DNA of 61,936 nt, filler included, from Sluysia triapertura (lineage: Eukaryota), in NCBI GenBank assembly GCA_046118255.1. It is 5 parts of 5 records of this genome, joined end to end, with 100 filler letters (N's around TTAATTAATTAA, not from the genome) between each part and the next. Parts side by side here need not be neighbours in the genome. Positions count along the whole stretch, not along the records: positions 1 to 14,619 come from JBJNIA010253192.1; 4 more parts are not named here. One strand, written 5' to 3'. A program made the position numbers and the translations under genes. Under the pieces are notes generated by a model. The model was not told the origin of the DNA. It saw only the letters and a program-made list of their open reading frames with translations, and ran no database searches. Positions 1-43,800 of this stretch are shown piece by piece. Every line of letters begins with the position of its first letter. Position 1 is the stretch's first letter.

Positions 1-77
1 GAAATTATTATTATGATTTAAACTGAACAAGATAATAATAGTGAGTTTAATATTTAACAAGTTTTAAAGACGCAACA
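1..77 (+). mobile_element. Terminal fragment of LTR-like family A
   Basis: Ends in AAAGACGCAACA, the same terminus as at 7565-7576 and, reverse-complemented, at 21672. Confidence 0.6.
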
Positions 78-1333
78 TAATCATTAGTAAAGTTATTGAC
101 AATGCGATAATGAATAACGTAGCTGAAATTATTAAATTAACTATTGACGGATGCTTTTTTAAAGTATCTATAATTGGTCCTTTGATTCTTTGTATAGCAA
201 AATGAAGTTGCTTAATAATTTTAGCTTGATGTTGGATGAATATTATTATATGTCTATCTTCTGAAAGTAAATAGTCCTTGCACATTGTTACTGGATACTC
301 TGTATTTGGTAGACCATGTCTATGTAATTCCCATATACTAAAATTAAGTCTTGCGGGGTTGATACATATGTACTGTGCTTTAATAATTCTAGTTACCTTA
401 ATTTGAACTTCTGTATCAAAATTATAAAAATCCAAATACTTCGATTTGTAAATTCTTTGTGATGCGTCCATAATTGTTATCAATGTTAGTAAGGTAAGTA
501 ACATCATGCTTGGTACCTTATTATTAACTCTTATAATCCTATTACAAGTAATTATATAGTAAATAGTGAACATCATATAAATTATGGTGAAGATTAAGAG
601 TGCAACTACAAAAATATTTTGCATTTCCAACCTATTTTCCTTACTTATATCTTTACTTATTTTCTTATTTAATTCGGTAGTAGTATTCGTGACTCTATTC
701 GATGTAGTAGGTAGTATTGTACTTATGGTTTTATTTATATCCTTTTTCTAAAAAATGTCCATGAAATCCATTATTACTGACTTATTATAAAGTGTAAATG
801 CTATTATTGTGGTATATTGAATTGAGTGCTCACATTTAAAAATATCTATTATTGAAGGTTTCTTTATTATCAATGCTTCAAAAAGTATGCAATATATAAT
901 CAGGAATTTCGTTTCTGTTAATATATTCAGCAGTCCAAAATCTATTGAATGTGTTTGTCAGAAAGAGATTTTGTTTAATATTGGTATAGCTTGTTACATT
1001 TATTGAATAATTCGTCATCATAGTTGTCAAGTGAAATAGAAATAGCATAAAAGTTATTATATAAAGATATTTATTATTTGAAATTGCCCTTATGAACATT
1101 ATACTGCTATCACTGTTACTAATACTAGTATTATTATCAGGAGTATTGTTATTACTAGTATTATTATCATTATTATTATTATCTGATCCGATATATGAAG
1201 TTCAAGATACTGTGGTATCCCACCAATCGAGATTTTCCCCATTTGGAGTTTGTGACGGTGGTAATACTGGATTTAATGGAGCAATTTGATAATTTTGTGG
1301 TTGTACCGGCGGTATTGTTCTTGCCATCGGAGG
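64..1333 (-). pseudogene. Env-like or membrane-protein extension of the Gypsy polyprotein
   Basis: Same frame as 1334-1906 through TGA stops: Pro-rich, Asn/Ser-rich and hydrophobic segments (878-1099); after a frameshift a Thr-rich stretch and ORF 64-630 with three hydrophobic segments. Confidence 0.5.
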
Positions 1334-1906
1334 TCAAACTAATTGTGGTAATACTACATGTGTACCTAGAGGTATTTTAAGAAATCCTAATATTCCGTGT
1401 ATTACTATATTTTCTGATTTGCTTAATACATCCATTCCTAATATAATATCGTATGGACATCTTTCCCAAGCTAAAAGTGTTACAAATATATCCACATCTA
1501 AGATTGTTAATTGACATTGTAGTATACCATTAAATAGAATATGTGAACCGTCTACTGCAAATAATCGTATACTCGCTTGTTGTAGCATATTGACTTCTAA
1601 AGCATTTAACACATTATAATTGATAATGGTATTCGAACCTGTATCTATAACTGCTCGTGCCCATCTTTGATTGAATTTAATGCTCTGAAATAGATGGTTT
1701 TGTATATTGAAATAGGAAGTTATAATATTTACCGTACTTATTGGTTTTGTCTCTTCACTCAATGATTTTGATGGATTATCTCTATCATTAATTCTTGGTT
1801 TAACTTTTAGTACACTTTTTGTAATTTTTCTATCCCTTAAATTATATTCATCATTAGGTGCCAATTTACATCGATTTAAATGTACAACAAAAGCTTCTAC
1901 ATTCAT
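1334..1906 (-). pseudogene. Second retropepsin-like aspartic protease, in frame after the integrase tail
   Basis: One ORF holds the integrase tail VVHLNRCK..YNLRDR, then RAVIDTGS, flap-like LFAVDGS and YDIILGMDVL. Confidence 0.85.
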
Positions 1907-2830
1907 ATCATTAGTTTTGAAGAATATCCTGGTTTCGCTATTGGATAGTCTATTAATACTTTATCTTCTATTTTAAAATTATGTTCATTTGCTTTTTGTC
2001 ATAATTATCTTTCAAGTTTCTTGCGTATAACGTATTTGTAAACCAGCGCTTTTCCATGCATCTTGTAAATTTTCTCTCAAAGTAGTAACACATTCTGGAG
2101 TTTCCATATATTTAGATGAAGGTGGTACCCAATCTAAGTCTACTGGCATGTTTGAATGTCTGTCGTACATGAGATAGAATGGTGTGAAATTAGTAGCAGG
2201 ATGTACTGAGATTCTGTACTCAAATAAACATGGTGATATATATAAGTCCCAATCTTTTTGTCTTTCGTTTACGTAGCATATTTACTACTAATCTTTCTAC
2301 TAATCCATCTGTCTGTGGATGGTATGGTGATGCATATATTTTTAAAATATTAAATATATTAGCAACGGATTTTATTACAAGGCTAGTAAATTAGTTCCCT
2401 GATCAGTTAATAATTTTCTTGGAGTTCCGTACCTGTATATTATTTTTTCTACTAATATTTGAGATACTGTTTCAGCTTTTTGATTAGGTATTGGGTGAGC
2501 TTCTGGCCATTTTGTTAAATAATCTGCGAATACTATTATATATTTATTTCCATTAATTGTTTCTGGCAATGGTCCCATTATATCCATTGCGGTGAATTCC
2601 ATTGGAGATAGTGGTATAGGCATTGGTCTTAATGGTAATTTTGTTTTTATCCCAGTATTCTTTCTTCTGCAACATATAGCAAAATTCTTACACCATTTTT
2701 TAATATCTTCTTCCATACTGTCCCAGTAATATTATTTTTAATTCTTGATAATGTTTTTCTTGTTGATAAGTGTCCATCGTGATATTGAATCAATAACGGT
2801 GTTATTACAGATTTCGGTACAATTGTTTTC
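1865..2830 (-). pseudogene. pol: Gypsy pol: integrase (zinc finger, catalytic core, C-terminal module)
   Basis: YHDGHL, WCKNFAIC, AMDIMGPLP, LLTDQG, YHPQTDGLVER, C-terminal VVHLNRCK. Confidence 0.95.
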
Positions 2831-3123
2831 CATTCGTTTTTTGAATCTCTAAAACGTAATATATCATCTGTTATTGATAACTTTTTAGCTTGATCTTCGT
2901 TCAACAGTCCTTTTGCTATAGCTTCAAATACATATGACATTTCTTCATCTTCTCTTTGATGTTTTATTATTTCTTTTGGTTCTTCCGCTTTTCCGAAATT
3001 GACATTATTTGAATAAAATTTATCTCTTTTTTCGTCATGATTTCTTAATTTTATATTCCCCTTTTCATCAGTATTTGTTAATCTTGACATACAATCAGCT
3101 CCATTGTTCATTGATCCTAGTTT

Positions 3124-3465
3124 TTATATTATTTGTAAATCGAATTCTACTAGTTTTGTGAACCGTCTATTTAATCTACTCACTTCGTCTTTTTGGTTGT
3201 ACAAGTGTGTTAATGACTTATGGTCAGTATATAAAAGCACTTTTTGTCCCAATAAATAGTGTCTGAATAACTTGCATGCATAGACAATTGCTAAACATTC
3301 TTTTTCAATTGTTGAATAATTCAATTCAGCTTTATTTATTCTCCTACTTACATATGCTATTACTCCTTCTAAATTTTCTTTATTTTTCTGTCTCAGAATT
3401 GCTCCTATTACAAAACTACTAGCATCTGTTGTTAGGATAAATGGTTTACTCATATCTGGGAACAT
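3124..3465 (-). pseudogene. pol: Gypsy pol: RNase H
   Basis: FILTTDASS...NYSTIEKECLAIV...LYTDHKSL, typical Ty3/Gypsy RNase H motifs. Confidence 0.95.
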
Positions 3466-4238
3466 TAGTTTTGATGCAGTTGTTAATTTTTTCTTTAATT
3501 CAATAAACGCTTTTGTTTGTTCTTCAGTTCATTTGAATATTGCATTCTTTTGTGTTAACATTCTTAAAGGTCTAGCTATTTTCGCAAAATCTTTTACAAA
3601 TCTTCTATAATAGTTGGCTAATCATAGAAAACCTTGAACTTTCTTTACATTATCTGGTGGTGGAAATTTAACAACTTTTTCCATATTTTTAGGATTTCGT
3701 TTTATACCTTTGTGTGAAACTATTATGACCTAAAAATTCAACTTGTTCTTATGCCCATACGCATTTAGTTGGTTTAACTTTCAATCTTGCGACTTCTAAT
3801 CTTTTTAATGTGTTATCAATATCTACTACTTGAGTATCAAAATCCTTAGAAAAAATTATTATATTATCAATATAAACCACAACATTCTTAAAACCGGACA
3901 GTACGAAATTCATACATCTGTGAAATGTTACCGATGCACTCGTTAATCCGAACGGCATTTTTTCACATTCGTACAATTCGTCTCCACATGAAAATGCTGT
4001 TTTATGTTTATCTTTTTCGGGTATTTCAATTTGTCACTAACCACTCTGCAAATCTATTGTTGTGAAATATTTAGCGTTTCCTAATTTATCTAGCATCTCA
4101 TCAATTCTTGGTAACGGCAATACATCTTTTCTTGTAATTTTATTCAATTCTCTAAAGTCAATACAAAATCTCATAGTTCCATATTTTTTCTTAACTAATA
4201 GCACCGGCCTTTTTCATCGTATCTATTTTATCTTTAAT
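3466..4238 (-). pseudogene. pol: Gypsy pol: reverse transcriptase
   Basis: [14 protein letters not shown]...[28 protein letters not shown] (YxDD decayed to YIDN), LANYYRRFVKDFAKIARPL. Confidence 0.95.
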
Positions 4239-4960
4239 TTATTGTTGGTTACTCAATGGAATTCTGTAAGGCTTCTTTCTCATTACTTTATCTTCTATTA
4301 ATGGGATTTCATGTTTTATTATGACGGAATCTCCAATATCATATTTGTTTCTTGTAATTGCCCATGGATATCTATGAATAGCTTTATATAATGTTTCTTT
4401 TTGTTGTTTAGTTAAATTATTATTCTTTATTTGTATTTCTTCGTAATCTTCTTCATCTTCAATATTTCTTTGTAGTTTTATGTTCTTATTTCTTGGTTTA
4501 TCATCTGATACCATTCTTATTTGTGTTTGTAATTTATAATTAACTATTTCTCCTAATTTGGTTCCTGCATATAACCATTTATTTTCATTTGTGTAATTTA
4601 TTATTCTTATTAATTCGTTAATTCTACATATTGAATCAGCAATACCTTTGTTTAATTTCTCTTGATTATTTTTCGAAGCTATAAACATTAGTGGGCTATT
4701 TCTTAAACTATTTGTTTTTCCTGGTATTATGCATTCTGTTCTTTTTAATAAACAACGTGGTTCTTCTAACATAATATCATCATTATCAATTGGTCTATCT
4801 GTATATGTATCCATTAATTTTGCTTTGCCAAAATCTAGTGAGACTCCTTTTAATTGTGATAATACATCCATACCTAATATCATGTCTTCTGGAGATTTTC
4901 TCTTTACCTTACATTTTATTTCAATTTTGTTTTGTCCAATTTCGCATAATATTTTTATTA
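4239..4960 (-). pseudogene. pol: Gypsy pol: C-terminal half of protease 1 and linker to RT
   Basis: EDMILGMDVLSQL retropepsin C-terminal motif; IKHEIPL...KKPYRIP marks the RT start. Confidence 0.85.
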
Positions 4961-6020
4961 ATGGGCATAATAGCTGTAAGCCAACACATTTAAATTTGTG
5001 CTATTTTAATTAATGCATAAAAATCACCTTCATAATATAATGATTGTAAAAATCTTAAATTTAATCCATTAAAAAATATCAAAAGTCACAAAATAGAGAA
5101 AAATATTACCATAAAATTACTAAATAATAAAGTTATAAAATCAGTGTTCATTATCTCTAATTTCAGTGTGATAATAAATGGCAAAAAATTAATAAAATAA
5201 CAATGGTTGACAATAATTTTTAATGAGAATAAAATTAATAAAATATATATTTGTAACATAATAATGAAATCAATATTTATAAATGAATTGAAATAATTTA
5301 AACCGGATAAAGTAATAAAAATATTTAAAATTATACCAACGTATAATATAGACGTATAATACAGAATGATGAAACACTTCTACAATTAGATAGATATCCA
5401 TAAATGTTTCACAAGATTGTATCAAAATAAAATTAAAAACAGGCAATAGGAACTCTATACGAACTGATTTAATTATAAAATAATAGCATATAAAAATATT
5501 CCTTAATAATACTTGAACGTATGTCATATAATTTATCCGTAAATGGAATAGAATAACTATCACATATCTACCAATAAAGTAGATAAATATAATAAAATAA
5601 ATGCAAGTAAATATAAAAATAATATGTCAATTTTGCGTAAATTGAAAAGAAACAATTATAACAAATTCAGTACATCATAATAACAATATTAAATTTTATA
5701 TTGTGGTTGTGTAAATGTTAAAGTAAGTATTTTTATGATTGTATGAAATTTGTTGAATATTGAGTTCCGAATTTTTATGTTATTTATTGATTTTTAATAA
5801 CTGCATTAGGTTGAGTTAAAGTTGTTTATGATAATTATATTTTGGCGTTGATTGCACTATAATTCTAAATGGTAATTTACCGTTATGTAAATGATACGAT
5901 TCATTTAGATAATCCATTAAGGAACTATAATATAATTAGAGCTCACCATGCATACATGGACTCATTTATCATGGACTCATTGCTAAAATGTCAAACATTC
6001 AATTATATCATTTATATACT

Positions 6021-6870
6021 TGTTGGGATTGCCCAGTTAATATATAGAAAATAGGTTAAAATGTAAGAAAATTCAAATATATATAAAGTATCTGAAATAC
6101 GATAATATAAACATAATTATATATTTCTAGAACAATAATAATGAACAGTAAAATGTTTATAATCATTTTAAAACCGAAGAATACCTTGGAGTTTCAAAGA
6201 CCTTTGTAGGGTATTGAGACCCTTACGAAGACTTAAGTAAGGTTTGGAAAGATGTTTTTAAGTAAGAAGATACCTTTGAACTTCCGAACCTTGGGATCAT
6301 TTGAGACCTTCAAGTAACTTTGTAAAAATGTTTAGAACCTTTAAAATCATAGTTAATAATATTAAAGATAAAATTAATACATTAATAATTAAAATAAAAA
6401 AGGAGAAAAAGGAATCAATGTGGTGAAGGTGAAAACATCTAGAGCCTCATGAGTACCTCATAAAGTATAACCATAATAAAACCTTTAAACTTAGAATAAA
6501 ACAAGTTAAAATAAATATATAATTAATTAAAATCTTATTTAACTTAATTAAGATAAATTACGTTTGTGTGAATAACTTTTGAATGAAGAATGCTATGTTC
6601 AAACTGTAACTGTGTATGTATGCGTTTTAAAGTGATCTTCCGATGAAGATAAGGTTGGATAGTTCATGCGAGGAAAGCCTCCGTATTGAGCAAAGTCGAA
6701 TATTAATTAATTTTTAATTAAAAATGCAGAAATTTTCATATTTAGAATGATGAAGAGATGATTTAGGTATGGAGTGACCTTAAATATTATCCATTAAAAA
6801 ATTGAGTATGACGAACTGAAAATTAATTAAACTGTAAACTAAAGGTAAATTCATAATTTTTATGTATGTC

Positions 6871-6912
<42 letters not shown>

Positions 6913-7576
6913 TGTTGTTGTTGTTGTTATTTTAATGTAAGAAGTGCTTCATGAAAAATAGATCGAGTAGAGTAAACGAAAAAAAATAAGAGTTGATTGT
7001 TAATCGAATTGTTATGTTTTGCTTTACTGGTCGTACCATGTAAATGTCAAAGTCGTTTTAGTCGGTTTAATCTTTAAAAGTAGTTTCGATGATATGTGTA
7101 AGAGTAATTCCTGATTGTGAGTTTGAGAATGATTGGACAATACAGAGATATAAAAGCGAATACTTAAAAAATTAACAACACAATCGATCATGGCGTAATG
7201 TAATGATCATATAATATTAAGTTGTTGTTTTTAATTTTTGGGTTGAATAAATATCATTATTAAGATAAGAAAATTGGTGATAAGTTGTACTTGATTTAGT
7301 GAATATTGAAATCATTTGAGGTTTAATTTATGTGAATTAAATTAATGTTGGATTATTCTTATTATTGATTTAAGGGCGTAACATTATTGTACTTGTTAGT
7401 TGAGTTTACAAAGATTTTAATATATAATTAGTATTTGCATTATTCTGTGAACAATGAAAGTTTACTGCAGTTAGAGAATAATCAATAAATAGTAACGATT
7501 AATGAAGATACATTGAAAATTTTGAGTTAATTTAATTATTAAGTTATTGTTAGTAATCTTATATAAAGACGCAACA
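6021..7576 (+). mobile_element. LTR-like family A, apparently full-length (about 1.55 kb)
   Basis: TGTTGGGATTG...GACGCAACA with TGTTG/CAACA inverted ends; flanks TACT/TAAT (possible 4-bp TSD with one mismatch); many diverged copies in the window. Confidence 0.7.
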
Positions 7577-7979
7577 TAATAATAAAATTCTAGTTAAAAT
7601 CGAAGTACATATAGCATGTGGTTTCTGACCAAACACCCTATTTTACGATTTAATAGATCCTATTACAGACAAATTTAAGAATACCATTACTACAATGTAA
7701 CGATTTTACATCATTTAATACCTCTATGAAATCTACAATACCATGTTCAGTTGTAAATGTCATTCAAATAATACTAATACTGATGTAAGACCTAAACCCA
7801 ACTTTTTATCGAAAACGATGAAGTCACCAAAGCGTAATCGCCGTAGGCAGAAATTAAGTGCGACTAAAATTGTTAATCCAATCTTAAAAAGACAAAATTA
7901 TAATATCATCGAAAAATTTATTAATACATTAATAATGAAAATTGTATAATGTTACATAAGCTTACGAAATTAATATTTA

Positions 7980-8668
7980 TTATTTTTATGTAATTTTTAT
8001 TCCTTCTGTTCATTATTTGGAATGACTCAACAAGTTTGTGCCCGAATTATCGACCAAGTAAGAATTTTTTATTCTTCTAAAAATATGTTCTGTATTAAGA
8101 ACCCTACCTTGGTTTATTTTGATGATTCGTCAACAACTTCGAATAAACCTAAAGTATCTACAAGACCATATTTATGTTGCTGTAGCTGGAGAAATTGTAA
8201 GAATAACTCTTACAATTGATGAAGTATACGCCTTTTCTACTACTCTCCAAATTAAAGCGCAGAAATTTCTAACCACTTTGGTACTTCTTTTTATTATACG
8301 AGATATTTGCTCTATATCTTTTTATCCAATTTACACATATGTCTTCCTCATCCATTTTCAACGAAAACAGTTACTCTTGTTAGTCAACTTTTAATTTTTA
8401 TATAAGCCTAACAGAATGTATTTACAGCTACCTCATATAGTAAACCGTATCATTTCGAAACAAACCGTATTTCACGCTATATGATCAAAACTTTCTCATG
8501 AACAAGTATGGCCTTGACAAAAAATATCTCTGGGGGTTCCGGATGAGGATAAGGTAAGACAATACCCCTCATGATACGATATTGGTGGTTGTAAACCATT
8601 CTTTGGTTATTAAAATTTTCAGAATTCATTTTAGTTGGTTGAAAGGTATAACCTACTGTGGTGGGCAT
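7980..8668 (-). pseudogene. Unidentified intronless coding remnant, convergent with ORF 7743-7949
   Basis: Higher GC and codon-like texture; ORF 8477-8668 continues through stops; no motif recognised. Confidence 0.25.
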
Positions 8669-9039
8669 TAAATGATTTATTATTTTTCATGCATTAAATT
8701 TATGAAATATTTTTATTATTTTTTTAAATTATAAACACTTAACTTTGGCTTAAGGTCTTTAACGAAAACAAATGAAATTATTTAGAACAGTTAAATTTAG
8801 AACACAAAATTTTATATTAAACAATAAAGTAACAGAAACAAGGCAACAAAATACCTTTAGAAATAGTTCATAAATAAGGAAATATGTTCTAGTTTGATTG
8901 TTTATGACATAGTATTAATGCATTTTTGTGCAAATCAACATGTAACAATAAAAACGTGTAACCAGTAATTGTAATAGAAGATAATAATTGTTGTAATACA
9001 ATAACTATCACATGACTACTGTGTAAGAGGTCATATATA

Positions 9040-9453
9040 CATTCCGACCACGAAATGGGGCAAAATTTCCCCAATTTTGAGGTTTTCCTCAAAATACGGG
9101 TCTTCAAAAATTAAGTAAAACATGTGGGAAAAATGACTTTTATGATAAAGAAATTACTGTAATTTGTATTAAAAACAAGATAAATCATTACATTTAAAAA
9201 ATGAACTTTCAAGTGGGAGAAATTAGTTGAAATTTTGAAAAATGAAATTAAAATTTTTTTAAACTTTGTTTAAATATTTGATTTATTATATCTATTAATT
9301 AATAAATCAAATCTATTTTATTAATAAATCTATTTTATTTTTCAAACTTTCAACTAATTTTCCCCACTTAAAAGTTCATTTTTAAAAAAAAGCATATTTT
9401 TATGAGGATTACTATTATGGTGACAAAATTTTCCCCAAAACGTGGTCGTACTG
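9040..9453. mobile_element. Tc1/pogo-type MITE, largely palindromic
   Basis: TA|CATTCCGACCACGAAATGGGG ... CCCCAAAACGTGGTCGTACTG|TA; additional internal inverted repeat about 9195-9245 versus 9340-9385. Confidence 0.85.
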
Positions 9454-10913
9454 TACCACATTATGCATAAATATGTTAGTTTTCATCGAATCATAATAAA
9501 TTGCGATAAAATAAATATAAGAAAACAGACTTGCCTTGATAACATCGAAAAATATAGAAGTATTCGCAAAAAATATGGTTAAAATAATTGCTTTAAGTGT
9601 TGGATATTTGATTAAAACTCAATGGAGTTTATAAATTATTTCACCATAATATTTCAATTTATATAAAAATAATAAGATGATTAAGGCCACAATAAAATAA
9701 GTACCAATAAAATACGCAGATGAAAACATAAAATGTTTCATTGTATAATAAACACCACAAAATGTATAAACAAACTCACTAAATTTATCACTTGTATCAA
9801 TTAAATTTTCTAAAATTGGAGATGCCGTTTCATCGTGTGGTAGCCAACATTCATAATCACAAAATAAATCTATTAAAATTTCACAACATCTAAATCACAA
9901 TCATATTTTACACTACCAGATTACATTAACCAACTTTTCAGAAACAATACTCTACATTTACAATAATTCAACAACAAACACATCTGAAACAACCCTTTCG
10001 AACCTTCAATTTATACTACTCTATAACAGTTAATACTCAATATGTGATAATATTTACTCAGTAGTTTATTGGTTTAAATCAAATCACAATCACAACTTCC
10101 AACATACAAATCACAAGTACATTTAATACTATTTCACAACATCAATAAATTTACTCGAAACATATAGAGTACCTACTTCATACCTTCGAATTAACTACAA
10201 CATGTCGAATGCACTACTCATCAACGCATAATCATCATTAACACAGAACATCAACACTAAAAACACCAAACAAAATAATCACACAAAACATAGCATAATA
10301 ACATCATCAATATACAAAGAGTTATATTGTAATTCTCCTCGTAAATTCAATAAATTACTGTCTTCTCAATAAACCTTTATCCATTATAATTCAATACGTA
10401 AGACTTGTTTTCAAATATTAAATTTTCAATCAATTTAGAAGAGCTTATCCTAACACTCTTCATTTCGTTTCTAACTCAAACCAATCATTATATCTTCATA
10501 GGTTAACTCTACTTAACAATCATTTTGTTTATTTCAAAATGCATTTTAACTCATTCCAACATGCTTAAATCCTTCAAGAATTTAATACAAATCTAACACA
10601 GCTCTAAAGAGTTAATTTTATAAAACAAAGCACCAACAATAACTCGAGCATCGTGTACCCTGTCACTTTGCTTCTTCAAGCACATCAGCGATCTTTATTT
10701 CAGTTTGTCTTTTATATGTAAGAAATAAACAGTGAAGAAAGAAAAGTTCACGTTGTTTTGTAAAGAAAGTTTATGCGTTAAATTACATTTTTTGTTTCAT
10801 TAGTAATAATAATAACAATATTATTGTAAATATTATTATTATCAGTTATATAACTAAATCAGTAAATTATTTTATCCAAAGTTTCAATTCCAATTGTCAA
10901 ATCTGGTATCTAT

Positions 10914-11066
10914 CATCATTAGTGTTGACACAATGTATAACAATACTCATGAATGTGTCAACACTGATGATGGCCAGTCATCAGTACTAATAATTTTTAC
11001 ATGTCACCCAATCAGAGCTGATTTTGTCTAATGTTCTCTTTCGGGGCTCTGATTGGATGACCAATC
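10914..11066 (+). promoter_or_regulatory. Cargo-cassette upstream module: 19-bp hairpin plus paired CCAAT motifs
   Basis: Arms 10914-10932 and 10954-10972 (18/19 match); CCAATCAGAGC...GCTCTGATTGG; GATTGGATGACCAATC at 11051-11066. Confidence 0.55.
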
Positions 11067-11149
11067 AACCATGATTAAACAAATCCAATTTTATAATTTT
11101 TAATTAAAAAGTACAAAAGAGGAAAACAACACAAGAAGCAACGGTAACA

Positions 11150-12068
11150 AATTTTCAAAAAGATACTCAAAATTTACGAAACGATAGAATAAAAAACTTG
11201 GAGTATATACTATCGAAAACTCAAATCCGTTTTAAGTGAATTTTTTAAAGCCGATAATGATATATAATCAATCATTGATATATCCAATGATGTTAAACTA
11301 CACATTCACAACTTCCACCAAGAAATCGAATCTGATGAAGCAAATCATATGGGAGAATTAATAAGAATGATTAAAGCCATTGATGATCCTAACCAATTGT
11401 TATATCTTATTAATTTTACTTTAGATCCAGATTTTAGTTAAAGTTTTAATTCAACATTGTATTCTCTTATGATAATTAAAGATGAGTATGTTGTGATTCA
11501 TTCATATAAATCAACATGCGATATCGTCACTGAGTTAGTAACTCAACTAACAGAAAACGAGACTTTGAATTTTGATCCGAATAATCTGGTTGTTTATCAC
11601 ACCAAAATAAAGAATTTAAGCGATTCCAAAAGCTATGATGAAATAGTCGAATCAGCAGACGTAAGAGCTGAATTAACTATGAAATTAAAAGGAGTACAAG
11701 TCGAGATCGACATGCTGAATAAAGTTTTTAGAAATGCAACAAAACTACATATATTTCATATGCAAGCTACAGAAAGTTTAAATAACGCTGAAACTGTTTA
11801 TGTACTAATTAGCCCATCAACAATATACCAATTCATGTATGTTACTCGTAATTCAACTATGTCAAGGAGAATGACGCTCATTTATGAGAGACTATTAGGT
11901 CACGAAGAGGTATTCTTATATCTAACTAACCTTATATCACGAACCTTATACCCACGTGATCGTCAATCAACAGTGAAGTTTATAATTATTTCTAATGCTT
12001 TTAATAAACTAACAAATCTCAAAGGTAAGTGCTCAAATTCAACGAATGATGAAATTATTATGCTATAA
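11150..12068 (+). pseudogene. Intronless ORF of unknown family X, copy 1 (weakly MSV199-like)
   Basis: 203-aa ORF 11457-12068 extends upstream through stops; AATAAA at about 12135; colinear similarity to 42700-43800. Confidence 0.5.
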
Positions 12069-21671: not shown

Positions 21672-22845
21672 TGTTGCGTCTTTAAAAGATCTGGATTATA
21701 ATTATTTAATTTAATTTACACTAAATTTAAATTCAGGGCTTAGTAAATCAAAAATATAATTCAAATATTTAATCAAATAAATATATATATCATAGGAAAG
21801 TAACTACTCTTACAGTTGAGAAATCCCACTAACTGATACTTAATATATAAAGTAAATAATAAAACTATAAATTGTCTAGGAAAATACAAATAAATATTAA
21901 ACAATCAGCAATCAACCAAAGATGACAGATTATTATTGTTAGCATACAAAATAATGAATTTAATTTGAATTTTCACAATTTAATTGATTTTTAGTTTTTC
22001 ACACCCAATTTTCTATGGAAAATGTTTAAGCTTTTTATTCTCAAACAAACCACTCTACAAACATTTCAAACTCACTTCTAGATTCTTCTCTTCCGTAGTA
22101 TTCATCTCATATTCAATTCATTGTACTTGCATCATTCCAAGTATAAAAAATTCAACGTTGCATAATTAAGAATTAATTAAAATTTGACTTTGCTTTCCTT
22201 GCATGAACTCGGTCAAACCATACTTTCATCGAAAGGTCCTTTCAAAACAAATACACGCACAATTTAACATAGCATTCCGCATTCAAAAGTTATTCAAAAA
22301 ATGTACTTTGTCTTTATTAAGTTGATTAATATTTTAATTAATTAATCTATTTATAGACTTAATCATATATTATGTTTAAAGGTTTTATTAAGGTTCTAAA
22401 GTTATTCAGTAGTTATAATGCATTCAGGAGGCTCTAGACGTTTTCACATTCACCTCTCTGATTCCATTTTCTACTTCTTTATGCTAATTATTACCGTGCT
22501 AGATTTATCCTTAATACCAATAACAATGATTTTATTTCTCAAATATTTTAAAGATTTTAAATACTTTATAAGATTACTCGAAGGTCTTAGATGTTTATCG
22601 ATGTTTCAAGAATGCTTAAAAGTTAATGAAGTCTCAGATGATTTCAAAGTTCACAAGTTCAAAAGTATCCTAATGCCATTAAAGGTTTTTCAAGTCCATC
22701 TCAAACCTTCATATAAGACATTGGAACTCAAAGGTATTTTCTAGCTGTTAACATCATTATAGATGTTCTCATTCTCATGATTCTCACTTTATAGTTCCAC
22801 GTATTTCTCACTCATCTTCTGATCCACAGTTGGACAATCCCAACA
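21672..22845 (-). mobile_element. LTR-like family A copy, internally deleted or variant
   Basis: Both termini present: TGTTGCGTCTTT at 21672 and TGGACAATCCCAACA ending at 22845; no TSD evident. Confidence 0.7.
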
Positions 22846-31429: not shown

Positions 31430-32749
31430 TGAAACACTGCACTTTACAATACGATTATGTTTTAATTTTTTTAAATATCTTCCAGTCACTCTCAAACTCA
31501 CAATCAGGAATTATTCTTACACAAATTAAAACCTCTTTCAAAGATTAACCCGACTAAAACTATGACATTTACATAGTATGACCTGTCAAGCAAAACATAA
31601 AATTTCGATTAACAATCAACTCTTATTTTTTCTTCTACTCTACTCGATCTATCTTTTCATGAACTACTTCTTACATTAAAATAACAATTATTATTATTAT
31701 TATTATTGTTATTATTATTATTGACATACTTAAAAATGATGAATGTAACTTTTGTTTTACAGTTTAATTAATTTTAAATTCCTCATACTTAAGTTTGTAA
31801 TGGAAAATGTTTAAGGTTCTCATACCCAAACAAACCATTTCGCAAACATCATTTCAACATTATTTTCGGATTCTCCTATTTAATAACAATCACTAAATGC
31901 CCAATTCATCATCTTTTCATCATTCTAAATATAAACATTTCAGTATTTTTTAATTAAAAATTTATTAAAATTCGACTTTGTTCAATATGGAGGCTTTTCT
32001 TATCTTATCGAAAGATCTCTTTAAAACACAAAATGCACAATTACAATTCCAACATAGCATTCCTCATTCAAAAGTTATTCACAAAAACGCACTTTTTCTT
32101 AATTAAGTTAATTAAGATTTTAATTAATTAATTATTTATTTTAACTTAATTTTTTTTAACTTATTCTAAGTTTAAAGGTTTTATTATGGTTATAAAGTTT
32201 TTAAATAATTTTCATGTTTTTATCTTCACCACTGTGATTGATTTTTCTACTTTTTTATTTTAATTATTAATGTATCAAGTTTATCCATGATTTTAATCCT
32301 TGAAAATTTTAAAGGTTTCAAAGATACTCGAAGGTCTCAAAAGTTTATTAAGGCCTCGAAAGTCTCAAAAGTTTATTAAGGTCTCGAAAGTCTCAAAAGT
32401 TTATTAAGGTCTCGAAAGTCTCAAAAGTTTATTAAGGTCTCGAAAGTCTTCAACGTTTCAAAAAGATCAAAAAGGTCTCAAATATTCCTCACACTTCAAT
32501 ATATCTTTCCAAGCCTTACTTAAATCTTCGTAAGGGTCTCAAAACCGTATAAGAGTCTTTGGAGCTCCAAGGTGTTCTTCGTTTTATAAAATGATTTTAA
32601 ACATTTTATTGTTCACTATTCTTGTACTAGGAATATTTAATCATGTTTATATTATCATATTTAAGATATTTCCAATCACTTTTACATATATATTTAAATT
32701 CTCTTACCTTTTAATCCATTTTCTACACACTAACTGGACAATCCTAACA
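31430..32749 (-). mobile_element. LTR-like family A copy
   Basis: Reverse complement closely follows 6021-7190; ends CTGGACAATCCTAACA. Confidence 0.85.
32332..32448. repeat. 28-bp tandem repeat, about 4 copies, inside a family A copy
   Basis: AAGGTCTCGAAAGTCTCAAAAGTTTATT units. Confidence 0.9.
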
Positions 32750-32764
32750 ATTCGTCAAAGCATG

Positions 32765-33305
32765 CTTTTCCTAAATTAAGTTAATTAAGATTTTAATTAA
32801 TTAATCAATTTCTAGACTTAATCGTACTTTATGCTTAAATGTTGGATTAAAGTTTTAAAATTGTTGAATTCTTCGTAAGGCCCTCAGGGGCTCTAGACTG
32901 TTCCGTCTTAACCACTCAATCACTTTGTCTTTCTTTATGTTAATTATTAATACATCAAATTTAACTTTAATATTAGTTACAATGATTTTATCAATTGAAT
33001 ATTCTTAAGATCTCAATACCTCATGAGATCACTAATGAAGATTTCAAAAATCCTCAAATATTTATTAGATCTTAAATGGCCTGAGGGTCCGCAAGTTCAA
33101 AGGTACTTTAATGCTTCGAAATGTTTTCCAAAGCTTCTTAAATGATCTCAAAATCTTACAAAGGCCTTTAGAATTTCAAAGTATTCTTTATTTGTCAACA
33201 CGACTATATTTGTTTTCATCCTCACCATTCTTAATCGAACAAATTTTTATTGTTTTATCCATCGTTTTATATCATTTCTCATCCAGAACGTGGGTAATCC
33301 CAACA
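32765..33305 (-). mobile_element. Family A partial copy
   Basis: Ends GGGTAATCCCAACA; carries the TTAAGTTAATTAAGATTTTAATTAA core. Confidence 0.75.
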
Positions 33306-36719: not shown

Positions 36720-37965
36720 TGTTGGTATTACCTAACTGTTGAATAGAATATGGGTAAAGAAGATCTGAAAATGATAGATGTAAGAAGAATTAATACAAAA
36801 TGATGCGCATAAAAGTTGAAACATTATTGGAACAAAAAATGATAAAAATGAAAACCTATATGAACACTTTGAATACCTTGAATTCCAAAGGTTTTATGGG
36901 TTGTTGGGACCTTTGAGGAGGCTTGAAATGGTTCGAAAAACGTTTTGGAGCATAAAATCTGAGACTTTTTTGAAACTTATTCAACCTTTGAGAATCTTTG
37001 ATATTTCGATAAGCATTTGAGACCTTTTAGTAATCTTTTAAAGTTTTTGAAATTTTTAATATATTTGAAAAATAGAATTATTGTTACAAATATTTAGAAT
37101 AAACTTGAAACATTAATAAATAACATAAAGAAGTAGAAAAAGGAATCAGATTGATGAAGACAGAAGCATTTGGAAACTTCTTATTGCCTTATAAAAACCT
37201 TAATAAAACCTATAAATATAAAGTAGCGCTAAGTTCAAAAATAGAATAATTAAGCAAAATCTTAATTAACTTAAGAAAAAAATATGTTTTTATGAATTAT
37301 GTTTGAATTCGACTTGCTGTATTAAAGTTTTAAGGTTTTAATATATGTTTTTGTTTTAAAAATATTTTTCAATGAAGATATGGTTTGACCGAGTTCGTGC
37401 AAGAAATGCCTTAATATTGAGATAAGTTAAATTTTATTTAATTCTCAATTATGGAATGTTAAATTTTTAAAATTTAAAATAATGACAGGATAATGATTGG
37501 AATGCGAGATGATTCCTATGAAACAGGAGAATCCAAATCTGAGTTTAAAATAGAACAATCTGTTTGAAAATAAGAACTTTAAACAATTTCATTTAAAAAA
37601 TTTGGTGTGAAAAAATGAAAATCAGTTTGATTATAAAAACTAAAATTAAATTCATTATTTTTATCTATGTTAACAGTACTGGTGATTATTATTTTAATGT
37701 GGGAAGTAATTTAAATAAAAAACGATCTAATGGAGAAAAAGAAAATTATAGTTGATCATTAATCAAATTTTTGAGTTCTCTACCTAATAAAGTCTAACTG
37801 ACATATCATGTAGTTTTCAAAGCTGTTATTATCGGTTTAATTATTAAAGAAAATTCTGATAATATGTATAAGAGCATGCTTGATTGGAAAACTCAAGAAG
37901 GATTGGATAATGAGAAAATGTAAAAGGAAATAGTTAAAAACATTACAATACAATTTATATGTTGG
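36720..37965 (+). mobile_element. LTR-like family A copy
   Basis: Starts TGTTGGTATTACC; colinear with 6021-7190. Confidence 0.8.
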
Positions 37966-41839: not shown

Positions 41840-42505
41840 TAATTTATGCTTCGCTCATATGTACGGCAAAATAAGTACTCAGAAGCGCTTAAAATAAATC
41901 ATTCAGTGTAATATTTCTGAAACAGAAAGAACGATGCCTTTTTTTAAAGATTTCGTATTCCAGTAATTTGACATTCTCTTGTAGTTGCTTGTTTATTTTT
42001 GAAACATAAACGGAATATAACCTGTAACCTAGCTTATTATCACTGTGGATTCTTTATTTATTATTATGTCTCAATGAAATATTCATCTTGGTTTCCAATT
42101 TTTATTATTTCTAAGAGATAATCAGGACTTCCGTAATGTAAGCATTTGTAAATTATTGTCATGATTTTGAATTCAATTCTTGCTTTTATTGGCAACCTAT
42201 GTAATTCCTTAAGATAAGGTGTTACATGAGATCTTCTTCCCACTTAGAGAATTAGTCTTGCTGCTTGATTAATTATTAATTGTAATTCACTTTTCTATAT
42301 GAATCTTTGTACAGTATTCCATTGTTAAAATCTCTGTTGTTAGTTATCAATGAATAAACAATTAGTTTGGCTGCTTTATTAATAAATTTTCGAATATTTG
42401 ATATTTTATTTAATTGATATTTACACTTTTTAGCAATACAATTAATATTTTCTTCCATGTTCATTTTTGAATCCATATAACAACCTATACATGTACTAAA
42501 AATCG
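41840..42505 (-). mobile_element. 5'-truncated L2/Crack-type LINE (post-RT ORF2 tail and 3' UTR)
   Basis: CIGCYMDSKMNM..YQLNKISNIRKFI..AAKLIVYSLI, QAARLI..RSHVTPYLKELHRLPIKARIEFKI..YKCLH; 3' AAGCGCTTCTGAG motif. Confidence 0.85.
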
Positions 42506-42699
42506 TTAATTTTATATGATTTACAATTAAGTTGCTTGTAAGAGTCTCTCTTAATAATAAATAAAAATAACGATACTCTGTTCGTGTAACATAAATATTT
42601 AAAATTACTTTAAATCTATACTTGTTAAACTGACTAGAAGATGCAATATTGTTCGTGGTCTTAGTGTGAATTTTATTGGTTTGTAGATTATGGCTAAGT

Positions 42700-43800
42700 G
42701 CGTTATTTTGTACTGACATGAGCAAATCATTCAAACGTCCCAAGTGTTCATTACTGAATTGATTTTTAAGCCATGATAATTTGATTCTAAGATACTATGA
42801 AAATAACAGCAACGTACGCCAAATTTAAGACATGCCGGATTCGTATAGCTGAGATGGACACTGTGCCGAAATTTTATAGATATCAGAAATTACACTTGGA
42901 TTAGAAATAAGTGATTTAGATTGATTGATCTTGTGGTTGATCAGATTGGATATCATACTTTGTTTACTTTTGACTTCATTATAGTTAACCATATTCATTT
43001 GAGATCGTATATATATTACAATTAAACCTTCAAAAATAAATGATGGAAAACTAAGGTCCATATTTTTACTATTATAATTAGCAGTGAATTCACTTATGTT
43101 GGCTTTATTAAAATTTTGATATAAATTTACTTGATTGGTAATATTGACGATAAAATTAGGATCTCTTCGATTCAAGGAGAGTAAAATAACTTCTGAAGCA
43201 GTATTATTTCTTAATGTACTGATCTTGTTGACTAAACAAGTATAAGATATATCTGAAAGATATTGTATTGATCCTTTATACAAATTATCCAGATTTATTT
43301 TGTATAACATCAACAAACGAATGTTAATAATGCGTGGAATGCATAATTTGAACACGTTCTAGATCAGATGTATCGTATAAAAATATTATTGAGTTTTCAC
43401 CATAATTAAACTCTTCATGAAATGAATTAACTATCTTTTCGGAGTGTTGACAAAATTTGGAAAAGAAATTACCAAAGAATCTCTTACTATTATTGAAATC
43501 GTTCTTTGCTTTTATTAAAAGTCCATTGAGTACATGATTATTAATTAATTTTAAGACAATAATGAAATTATTAGTTTGTGATTCCTTTTCATCATCAAAA
43601 TATTTCGCTTTGATTCTGATGAAATCTCTTTCTCTTATAATATACATATTTCTTCCATTCACTGAAAACATATTATACTTATGAAACAAATGTGTAAAAA
43701 TTTTTTGGTATTCGTAAATTTTTAGTACTTTTTTTAAATCTGATTTTTATTAGATTCTATTTTTAGATTTTTACCTGTCTCGAAAAGTAATTTTTAATTC
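42700..43800 (-). pseudogene. Intronless ORF of unknown family X, copy 2 (frameshifted)
   Basis: ORFs 43324-43689 and 42825-43355 align in order with 11150-12068: VQIMHS/VVIHS, IQYLSDISY/IKNLSDSKSY, LISNPSVI/LISPSTI. Confidence 0.5.

Follow-up and report, generated by a model that had tools for sequence, protein, structure and literature searches.

The window, that is the whole stretch of 61,936 nucleotides from Sluysia triapertura analysed here, contains a Gypsy element copy that is dead and truncated at its 5' end, and that carries a second retropepsin (PR2) after the integrase. On the minus strand, positions 1337-1960 form one stop-free frame of 208 aa in which the ORF scan joins the end of the integrase to a retropepsin; the chance of this open frame at the local composition is about 4e-9. 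The original prediction of an integrase-end motif and a complete retropepsin in one ORF was confirmed with all of its motifs, although only the last ~20 integrase residues are included and the GPY/F part lies just upstream in another frame. The integrase C-terminal motif (1835..1888), in frame with PR2, consists of VVHLNRCK (1888-1865) and YNLR (1846-1835), and the same frame encodes the catalytic VIDTGS (1651-1634, with the DTG core at 1645-1637), the flap AVDGS (1558-1544) and the strand IILGMDVL (1447-1424). Pfam matched no chromodomain in the window or in the clade proteins; the post-integrase slot is occupied by the retropepsin.

PR2 (1376..1699, minus strand, delimited by Pfam, profile, model and motifs) is a complete retropepsin with an intact DTG. 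VIDTGS together with IILGMD represents the retropepsin signature (clan AA, A2-type), in which D and G are invariant. Residues 94-180 of the ORF were assigned to the retropepsins by Pfam, where gag-asp_proteas matched with E 3.5e-5, below its cut-off, and RVP_2 at its cut-off. The AlphaFold model of PR2 reached a pLDDT of 91 with 25 retropepsins as input alignment, and as this alignment contained other retropepsins the model fold leans on them. The closest fold is the retroviral-protease-like domain of Ddi1 (TM 0.78, E 2.8e-6), and the proteases of XMRV, EIAV and HIV also fit the model with an rmsd of 2-3 Å. A PDB search from the single PR2 sequence gave chance-level matches only.

The remainder of the copy lies on the same strand and shows the pol order PR-RT-RH-IN of Metaviridae by Pfam and tblastn. 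A second ILGMDVL, noted initially at the pre-RT site, is indeed found there (4880-4860), but the protease to which it belongs, PR1, is represented by its C-terminal half only (4827..5000; PR profile match 4955-4827). D[TS]G is absent from every minus frame of 4881-5600, and the catalytic half is missing because the window copy is cut off near 5000. PR1 is followed by a dUTPase-like spacer that is collinear with the spacer of the relatives described below (4440..4826), by the reverse transcriptase with stops and a frameshift (3725..4207; Pfam RVT_1 E 6e-14; 56-61% identity to the relatives), by RNase H (3127..3528; Pfam RT_RNaseH E 8.5e-37) and by the integrase with H2C2 zinc finger, core and GPY/F part in several broken frames (1918..2820; Pfam Integrase_H2C2 and rve, tblastn with the relatives). 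Many stops and at least three frameshifts are spread over reverse transcriptase, RNase H and integrase, and the window copy is therefore dead. No host gene was identified by Pfam in the window.

Behind PR2 the ORF ends in a stop codon (1334-1336), followed by a proline-rich linker (1204..1336 including the stop). The N-terminal part of a first cargo (751..1201, placed by repeat-level depth) is N-rich and comprises a hydrophobic stretch, signal-like by eye at ~1069-1028, and a broken region; it has no Pfam match. A 227-aa ORF follows (64..747, placed by hydropathy and depth), and the element continues beyond window position 1. This ORF encodes a T/S-rich stalk and a TM at 615-559 in the hydropathy scan, a signal-like stretch by eye at ~507-463, an ectodomain of ~110 aa and a TM at 135-79. 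The window cargo apparently repeats, twice, the signal/ectodomain/TM layout of the relatives' cargo, and profile and Atlas searches revealed no clear homology between the two. For the 227-aa ORF no significant match was obtained in Pfam, Atlas or the profile of the relatives' FN3 ectodomain, and one weak match (E 0.014) linked it to the ectodomain of the relative P0018.

Copies in the same organism were read from one public sequencing run, possibly the source of the window, which informs on copies and not on a second organism; none of the public runs listed was an RNA run with the window stretch. From this run 31,659 contigs aligned to window positions 1-7000, mostly with 80-95% identity. Their summed depth, which is no copy number, ranged from 8.6e3 to 2.9e5 in bins over 1-4914 (~8.8e4 on PR2, 1.1e4-1.3e5 over the 227-aa ORF) and from 300 to 380 on the flank 5149-5616, a drop from 1e5 to about 350 past ~5150, and the repeat signal stops near 5000-5050. 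The integrase, PR2 and the downstream ORFs act as one abundant repeat in these data, in which no listed contig spans the whole integrase/PR2 junction. At the stop codon 1334-1336 another 52 contigs, carrying nearly all of the local depth, differ from the window, and the stop hence looks private to the window copy.

Elsewhere in the window three further regions were recorded. Positions 6020-6900 hold a non-coding interspersed repeat that is separate from the Gypsy element, with a summed depth of up to 6e5 and copies at ~22130-22534, 31693-33188 and 37014-37485. Three adjacent ORFs at 42276-43746 (minus strand) have no significant Pfam match and, judged by eye, presumably resemble a decayed non-LTR retrotransposon. 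A stop-free frame of 208 codons at 11442-12068 (plus strand) likewise has no Pfam match.

Relatives of the element were collected by a search of 1.84 billion representatives (16 matches), by two word searches (6 of 1079 and 5 of 375 candidates) and by a metagenome scan (80 loci). From the 16 matches, P0005, P0008, P0011 and P0013 as well as the nested contrast P0016 were used for architecture; P0012 was discarded as a repeat-protein false match, and the remaining ones were generic or fragmentary proteases. Neither the viral contigs searched nor a word search among longer proteins, run with the window ORF as query (0 of 1605 candidates), yielded a relative. In the integrase tree, nine relatives and the window form a 100/100 clade against 31 other Gypsy rows, and a tenth relative, P0023, was placed with this clade by 58% identity. 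P0011 and the metagenome locus L001 are one element and not independent. P0005, P0008, P0013 and P0018-P0023 were analysed as protein sequences. The integrase-end motif was found in 8/8 clade proteins scanned.

A post-integrase protease is present in six of the ten relatives (P0005, P0011/L001, P0013, P0018, P0019 and P0020), where it lies 51-61 residues past the NRC motif of the integrase end, compared with 77 in the window. The window is collinear with all six through the integrase-PR2 junction in one tblastn segment. Integrase end and PR2 share one ORF in these relatives, and the junction is not private to the window but a trait of the lineage. All of these proteases (6/6) and that of the window retain an intact D[TS]G and C-terminal GxD/N strand, at a mutual identity of the post-integrase proteases of 20-33%; the catalytic motifs being kept at such divergence points to selection on catalysis. 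On the other hand, PR2 is absent from P0008, P0021, P0022 and P0023 and is thus dispensable. Because the profile used for protease detection derives from these very domains, its misses carry information but its matches do not. P0008 and P0021 have the C-terminal membrane cargo of the PR2 carriers, yet lack PR2.

It is very improbable that PR2 arose in the window copy alone, through nesting of or recombination with a second element or as an artefact of assembly. The window copy is old and broken, as nesting would allow, and true nested cases exist in the sample, namely P0016, with gag and PR repeated after the integrase, and L026, with a later PR followed by RT. However, the junction recurs in six relatives within one ORF that leaves no room for gag, and in none of the six (0/6) does RT follow the post-integrase protease, contrary to what a nested unit would give. 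Repeat-level contig cover is continuous over integrase, PR2 and cargo, no N gap is nearby (0 within window positions 1-8000), and the single open frame of L001 largely refutes nesting. Among the 80 metagenome loci only L001 carries a protease right after the integrase; the later proteases of L023, L026 and L040 belong to other gag-pol units. P0016 itself is a pseudoscorpion protein outside the clade, in which gag and a protease occur again behind the integrase in one predicted ORF.

The relatives show where PR2 sits in a complete polyprotein. The single frame of L001 stays open over at least 2368 aa and encodes, in this order, PR1, RT, RH, IN, PR2, a dead protease, ankyrins, a signal-like stretch, an ectodomain and the C-terminal TM. 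P0013 (2855 aa) and P0020 (3036 aa) carry, in frame upstream of pol, a Monjiviricetes-type fusion glycoprotein, i.e., a gB-type envelope (PF24664, E 1e-84 and 2e-86, respectively), with an extra protease right behind the envelope TM. P0018 has one protease behind the integrase and another behind the ankyrins, and P0008 has two before RT and none behind the integrase. Intact proteases number three in both P0013 and P0020; two proteases per element had been predicted, and the extra one exists, but the count per relative rises to three. The composite order of the relatives reads [cargo]-signal-envelope-TM-PR-zinc fingers-PR-dUTPase-like-RT-RH-IN-PR, and behind the post-integrase protease (dead PR, ankyrin, PR)-signal-FN3-like-TM.

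Ankyrin repeats (Ank_2) were matched in P0011 (E 6e-11) and P0018 (E 5e-12), weakly in P0023, and not in the window piece. In the model of the L001 spacer between PR and RT, all 33 listed PDB matches are dUTPases (best E 1.9e-3, probability 1.00); Pfam alone gave no match on the PR-RT spacer, and the L001 and window spacers align with 20% identity. The C-terminal ectodomain of the relatives looks FN3-like (Atlas lead 0.86, with repeats in the comparison). In P0008, P0011, P0013, P0018, P0019 and P0021, a signal-like stretch and a C-terminal anchor enclose Cys-bearing FN3-like modules, which make up a second surface protein beside the envelope and occur with or without PR2. The expectation of envelope-like proteins downstream of PR2 was therefore not upheld: the envelope lies in frame upstream of pol in P0013 and P0020, and the downstream part consists of ankyrins and an FN3-like membrane protein.

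Behind its polyprotein L001 contains two separate ORFs (7268-8743 and 9043-10374) with a common exonuclease-like domain; blastp aligns the two with E 5e-13, and Pfam RNase_T matches the second with E 1.5e-11. They recall the ORF3 that encodes a DEDD exonuclease in LTR elements of bdelloids, as described in excerpts of PMC5408684. A third ORF (10906-11517) ends in a weak ubiquitin/SUMO-like domain, and tandem doublets of 89 bp and 62 bp lie in the spacers ahead of the last two ORFs.

The original prediction regarded PR2 as a duplicated protease. PR2 is no recent copy of its own PR1, as the DNA likeness between the PR1 remnant and PR2 lies within shuffle range (score reached by 30/300 shuffles), and within one element PR1 and PR2 are 19-28% identical. 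In a 21-row protease tree, ten extra proteases of the relatives, from sites behind envelope, integrase and ankyrin and ahead of PR1, group apart from the pre-RT proteases (93/96 branch). The post-integrase proteases as one clade, a group set by the initial question, were rejected (p-AU 0.025). Neither of the two free trees (21-row and 41-row) places the window PR2 in the accessory group, but a tree that forces it inside was not rejected (p-AU 0.455), the group having been named after the 41-row tree. The protease trees are poorly resolved. We read the extra proteases as an old accessory paralog that was probably re-duplicated and shuffled; the window PR2 may be a long-branch member of this group or a separate gain.

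Several of these observations would also suit a tolerated by-product, in which a protease module with its own upstream cleavage site duplicates easily within a modular polyprotein, does no harm because it is excised, and undergoes random loss or decay. Presence is patchy (6/10 relatives), the post-integrase proteases do not form one clade, and the protease end branches amount to ~1 change per site compared with 0.07-0.44 for the integrase. In addition, protease-like domains without D[TS]G follow directly behind PR2 (L001 4164-4430; P0011 954-1042; P0018 1198-1286), and the dead copies in P0011 and P0018 show that protease modules duplicate and decay in this lineage. We nevertheless consider a by-product rather unlikely, since 7/7 first post-integrase domains preserve both D[TS]G and the GxD/N strand at 20-33% identity and the position of PR2 is constant within ~25 residues. 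The dead domains of P0011 and P0018 are sisters (99/98), which indicates that the domain was retained after losing catalysis; it possibly serves as an intrinsic inhibitor or as one of the halves in a single-chain dimer.

To describe how PR2 could be set free, a motif, [VI][AGNSC]x[MILV], was defined on the segments ahead of the proteases, where it lies 26-39 residues ahead of the catalytic aspartate in 12/15 proteases, including 7/7 post-integrase ones. Because of this definition the held-out RNase H/integrase junctions are the real test, and there the motif was found at 7/9 junctions against a background of 0.20 per window (p ~3e-4), the misses being the window and L001. In the window the motif places a predicted retropepsin cleavage site at the integrase/PR2 border (1721..1741, minus strand). 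A cleavage-like motif at this border suggests that PR2 is likely a released enzyme and no appendage of the integrase; unlike a chromodomain, it would be cut free. The motif site is also found at the integrase end in three of the four PR2-less relatives, so PR1 alone can make that cut.

Taken from sequence and domain order, the reading that we favour by a modest degree is that PR2 is an accessory protease, cut free, that assists in processing the cargo region of one very long polyprotein. Hydropathy in the relatives shows an envelope TM ahead of pol and a signal-like stretch plus C-terminal TM behind it. Host signal peptidase would free the lumenal parts, and pol and cargo would stay cytosolic and anchored to the membrane at both ends. 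Retropepsin sites would mark the module borders, including that between integrase and PR2, and extra proteases at such borders would raise the local protease dose or pair within one chain. Cargo and enzymes could then be released without waiting for capsid assembly to dimerise the single PR1, and for a membrane-tied polyprotein with host-directed cargo such early, local cutting could be useful. The proposed release of cargo from a long polyprotein thus keeps its basis insofar as the PR2 of relatives shares one ORF with downstream cargo, but is weakened by PR2 being dispensable. Early processing has a precedent that speaks for the model and also shows a cost: two tethered protease copies in HIV Gag-Pol lead to early processing and block particle formation, according to excerpts of PMC8537868, and by analogy this would have to be explained by the processing model.

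PR2 could itself be cargo, a released retropepsin directed at host proteins like the domesticated Ddi1/ASPRV1, beside ankyrin, ubiquitin-like and anti-apoptotic modules. It sits in the cargo region between cleavage-like sites, the extra proteases diverge fast, and effects of Burro cargo on its host, namely of B-IAP in stem cells, are reported in work cited by the available part of PMC13465017. Cellular Ddi1/ASPRV1 are the top fold and profile matches of PR2, with a profile that included many pre-RT proteases; these two are, however, top matches for Gypsy-type proteases generally, and the recurrence of extra proteases at membrane and module borders is a better fit to processing. We therefore regard a host-directed PR2 as improbable.

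Slightly less probable still is a timing regulator, in which extra and dead domains, instead of cutting sites of their own, pair with PR1 and determine the start of processing, by activating PR1 in cis or by damping it as dead partners. Retropepsins are obligate dimers and tethering shifts timing in HIV (both in excerpts of PMC8537868), and the dead copies stand directly behind PR2 in P0011 and P0018. Yet PR1 and PR2 are 19-28% identical, so that mixed dimers may not form, and the window has no dead copy.

The accessory-protease reading can be extended to a two-class system, which we put forward as a doubtful, speculative variant. The canonical pre-RT protease would serve particle maturation, and an ancient accessory class would free host-modulating cargo early by pairing in-chain, without particle assembly, with dead copies as brakes. 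This class would have been reused behind the envelope anchor, the integrase and the ankyrins. A two-class system of this kind is not known from other LTR retroelements.

The window element works like, and most likely is, a Burro-type element, a comparison based on domain layout and envelope motifs. The literature on Burro/GYPSM1 reportedly comprises Jurka 2007 and Grohme 2018. Burro/GYPSM1 elements are giant Gypsy LTR retrotransposons of planarians, with one ORF of ~4,900 aa, an envelope in frame between gag and PR, a dUTPase-like domain between PR and RT, ankyrins, Ub/SUMO-like, BIR and BCL2 domains (excerpts of PMC6431247). The relatives share with Burro the huge polyprotein with cargo in frame (L001, P0013, P0020), which is broken in the window, and the in-frame envelope upstream of PR (P0013, P0020), a region absent from the window. 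The dUTPase-like spacer between PR and RT (L001 model, weak with E 1.9e-3; window collinear), the ankyrin repeats (P0011, P0018, weak in P0023), and the high copy number with decaying copies in an AT-rich genome fit as well. The GC content of the window (~17-30%) agrees with the >70% A/T reported for S. mediterranea.

Other Burro features were weak or not recovered. Ub/SUMO-like matches were weak in the last ORF of L001 (ubiquitin E 0.013, PF11976 E 0.024), and the N-terminal Ub/SUMO-like candidate of P0020 gave no match. BIR, BCL2 and MATH had no Pfam match in the pieces of window, relatives and metagenome loci examined, and gag had none in window pieces or clade proteins, all of which are 5'-incomplete or without DNA context. 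No long direct repeat (LTR) was found in L001, which is open at both ends. Burro elements measure 25-30 kb with long LTRs. The window copy breaks off at ~5000 on one side and extends past position 1 on the other. The available text of PMC6431247 names one protease and no C-terminal FN3-like surface protein, in contrast to the relatives, which carry two to three intact retropepsins plus dead copies as well as an FN3-like protein.

Schmidtea mediterranea also harbours GAG-ENV-POL 'errantiviruses' 1-6 with an HSV/gB-type envelope before pol and spans of 14.5-18 kb (PMC13524379, as far as its text was available). An envelope before pol is common to these elements and P0013/P0020, and the window lacks the envelope region. 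In the available part of the PMC13524379 envelope table, the motifs YQESD and TGES of P0013/P0020 occur in three rows each, all from Schmidtea, and DGTC in two Schmidtea rows and one wasp row; pol motifs are absent from the supplements. Extra proteases are undescribed there for Schmidtea elements, the word 'protease' being used a single time in the main text and in none of the seven supplements, as far as available. Troyka was dropped as identity, excerpts of PMC12440569 holding no fitting feature.

Canonical Metaviridae (Ty3/Gypsy) have one protease and an envelope downstream of the integrase (PMC7879559). The elements described here keep the same PR-RT-RH-IN order but differ by the extra proteases, by the upstream envelope of the relatives and by in-frame cargo behind the integrase. 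Nematode NERV elements, the subject of Sacco 2022, are said to have gag-env-pro-pol in one ORF and would thus resemble the relatives in the envelope ahead of pol; we know of no report of a post-integrase protease in them. Several proteases in one polyprotein are known from positive-strand RNA viruses, e.g., PLpro and Mpro of coronaviruses (excerpts of PMC8537868). The likeness is one of working only, in that some of the processing of a very long polyprotein falls to accessory proteases; the coronavirus enzymes are unrelated cysteine proteases, whereas retropepsins need two halves per active site.

In the literature searched, comprising text without figures, with the original Burro papers outside the search, no description was found of an LTR element with several retropepsins or with one behind the integrase. 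Extra proteases are unmentioned in PMC7879559 and in the available parts of PMC6431247, PMC13524379, PMC8532177, PMC11410931, PMC13238120, PMC13465017, PMC5408684, PMC6338049, PMC10561763 and PMC12440569. That figures or supplements of Grohme 2018, Lee 2026 and Sacco 2022 show several proteases is a serious possibility, if somewhat short of an even chance. The family is already known, and its extra proteases are apparently undescribed, although they may have appeared in print.

The timing of maturation in retroviruses and LTR retroelements is commonly ascribed to one protease, which becomes active only on dimerising in the particle. A successful high-copy lineage in which each polyprotein has two to three intact retropepsins would demonstrate a different way of operating this maturation switch. 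The extra proteases are at the same time a possible route by which Burro cargo is released from the giant polyprotein; work cited in excerpts of PMC13465017 reports that this cargo supports planarian stem cells.
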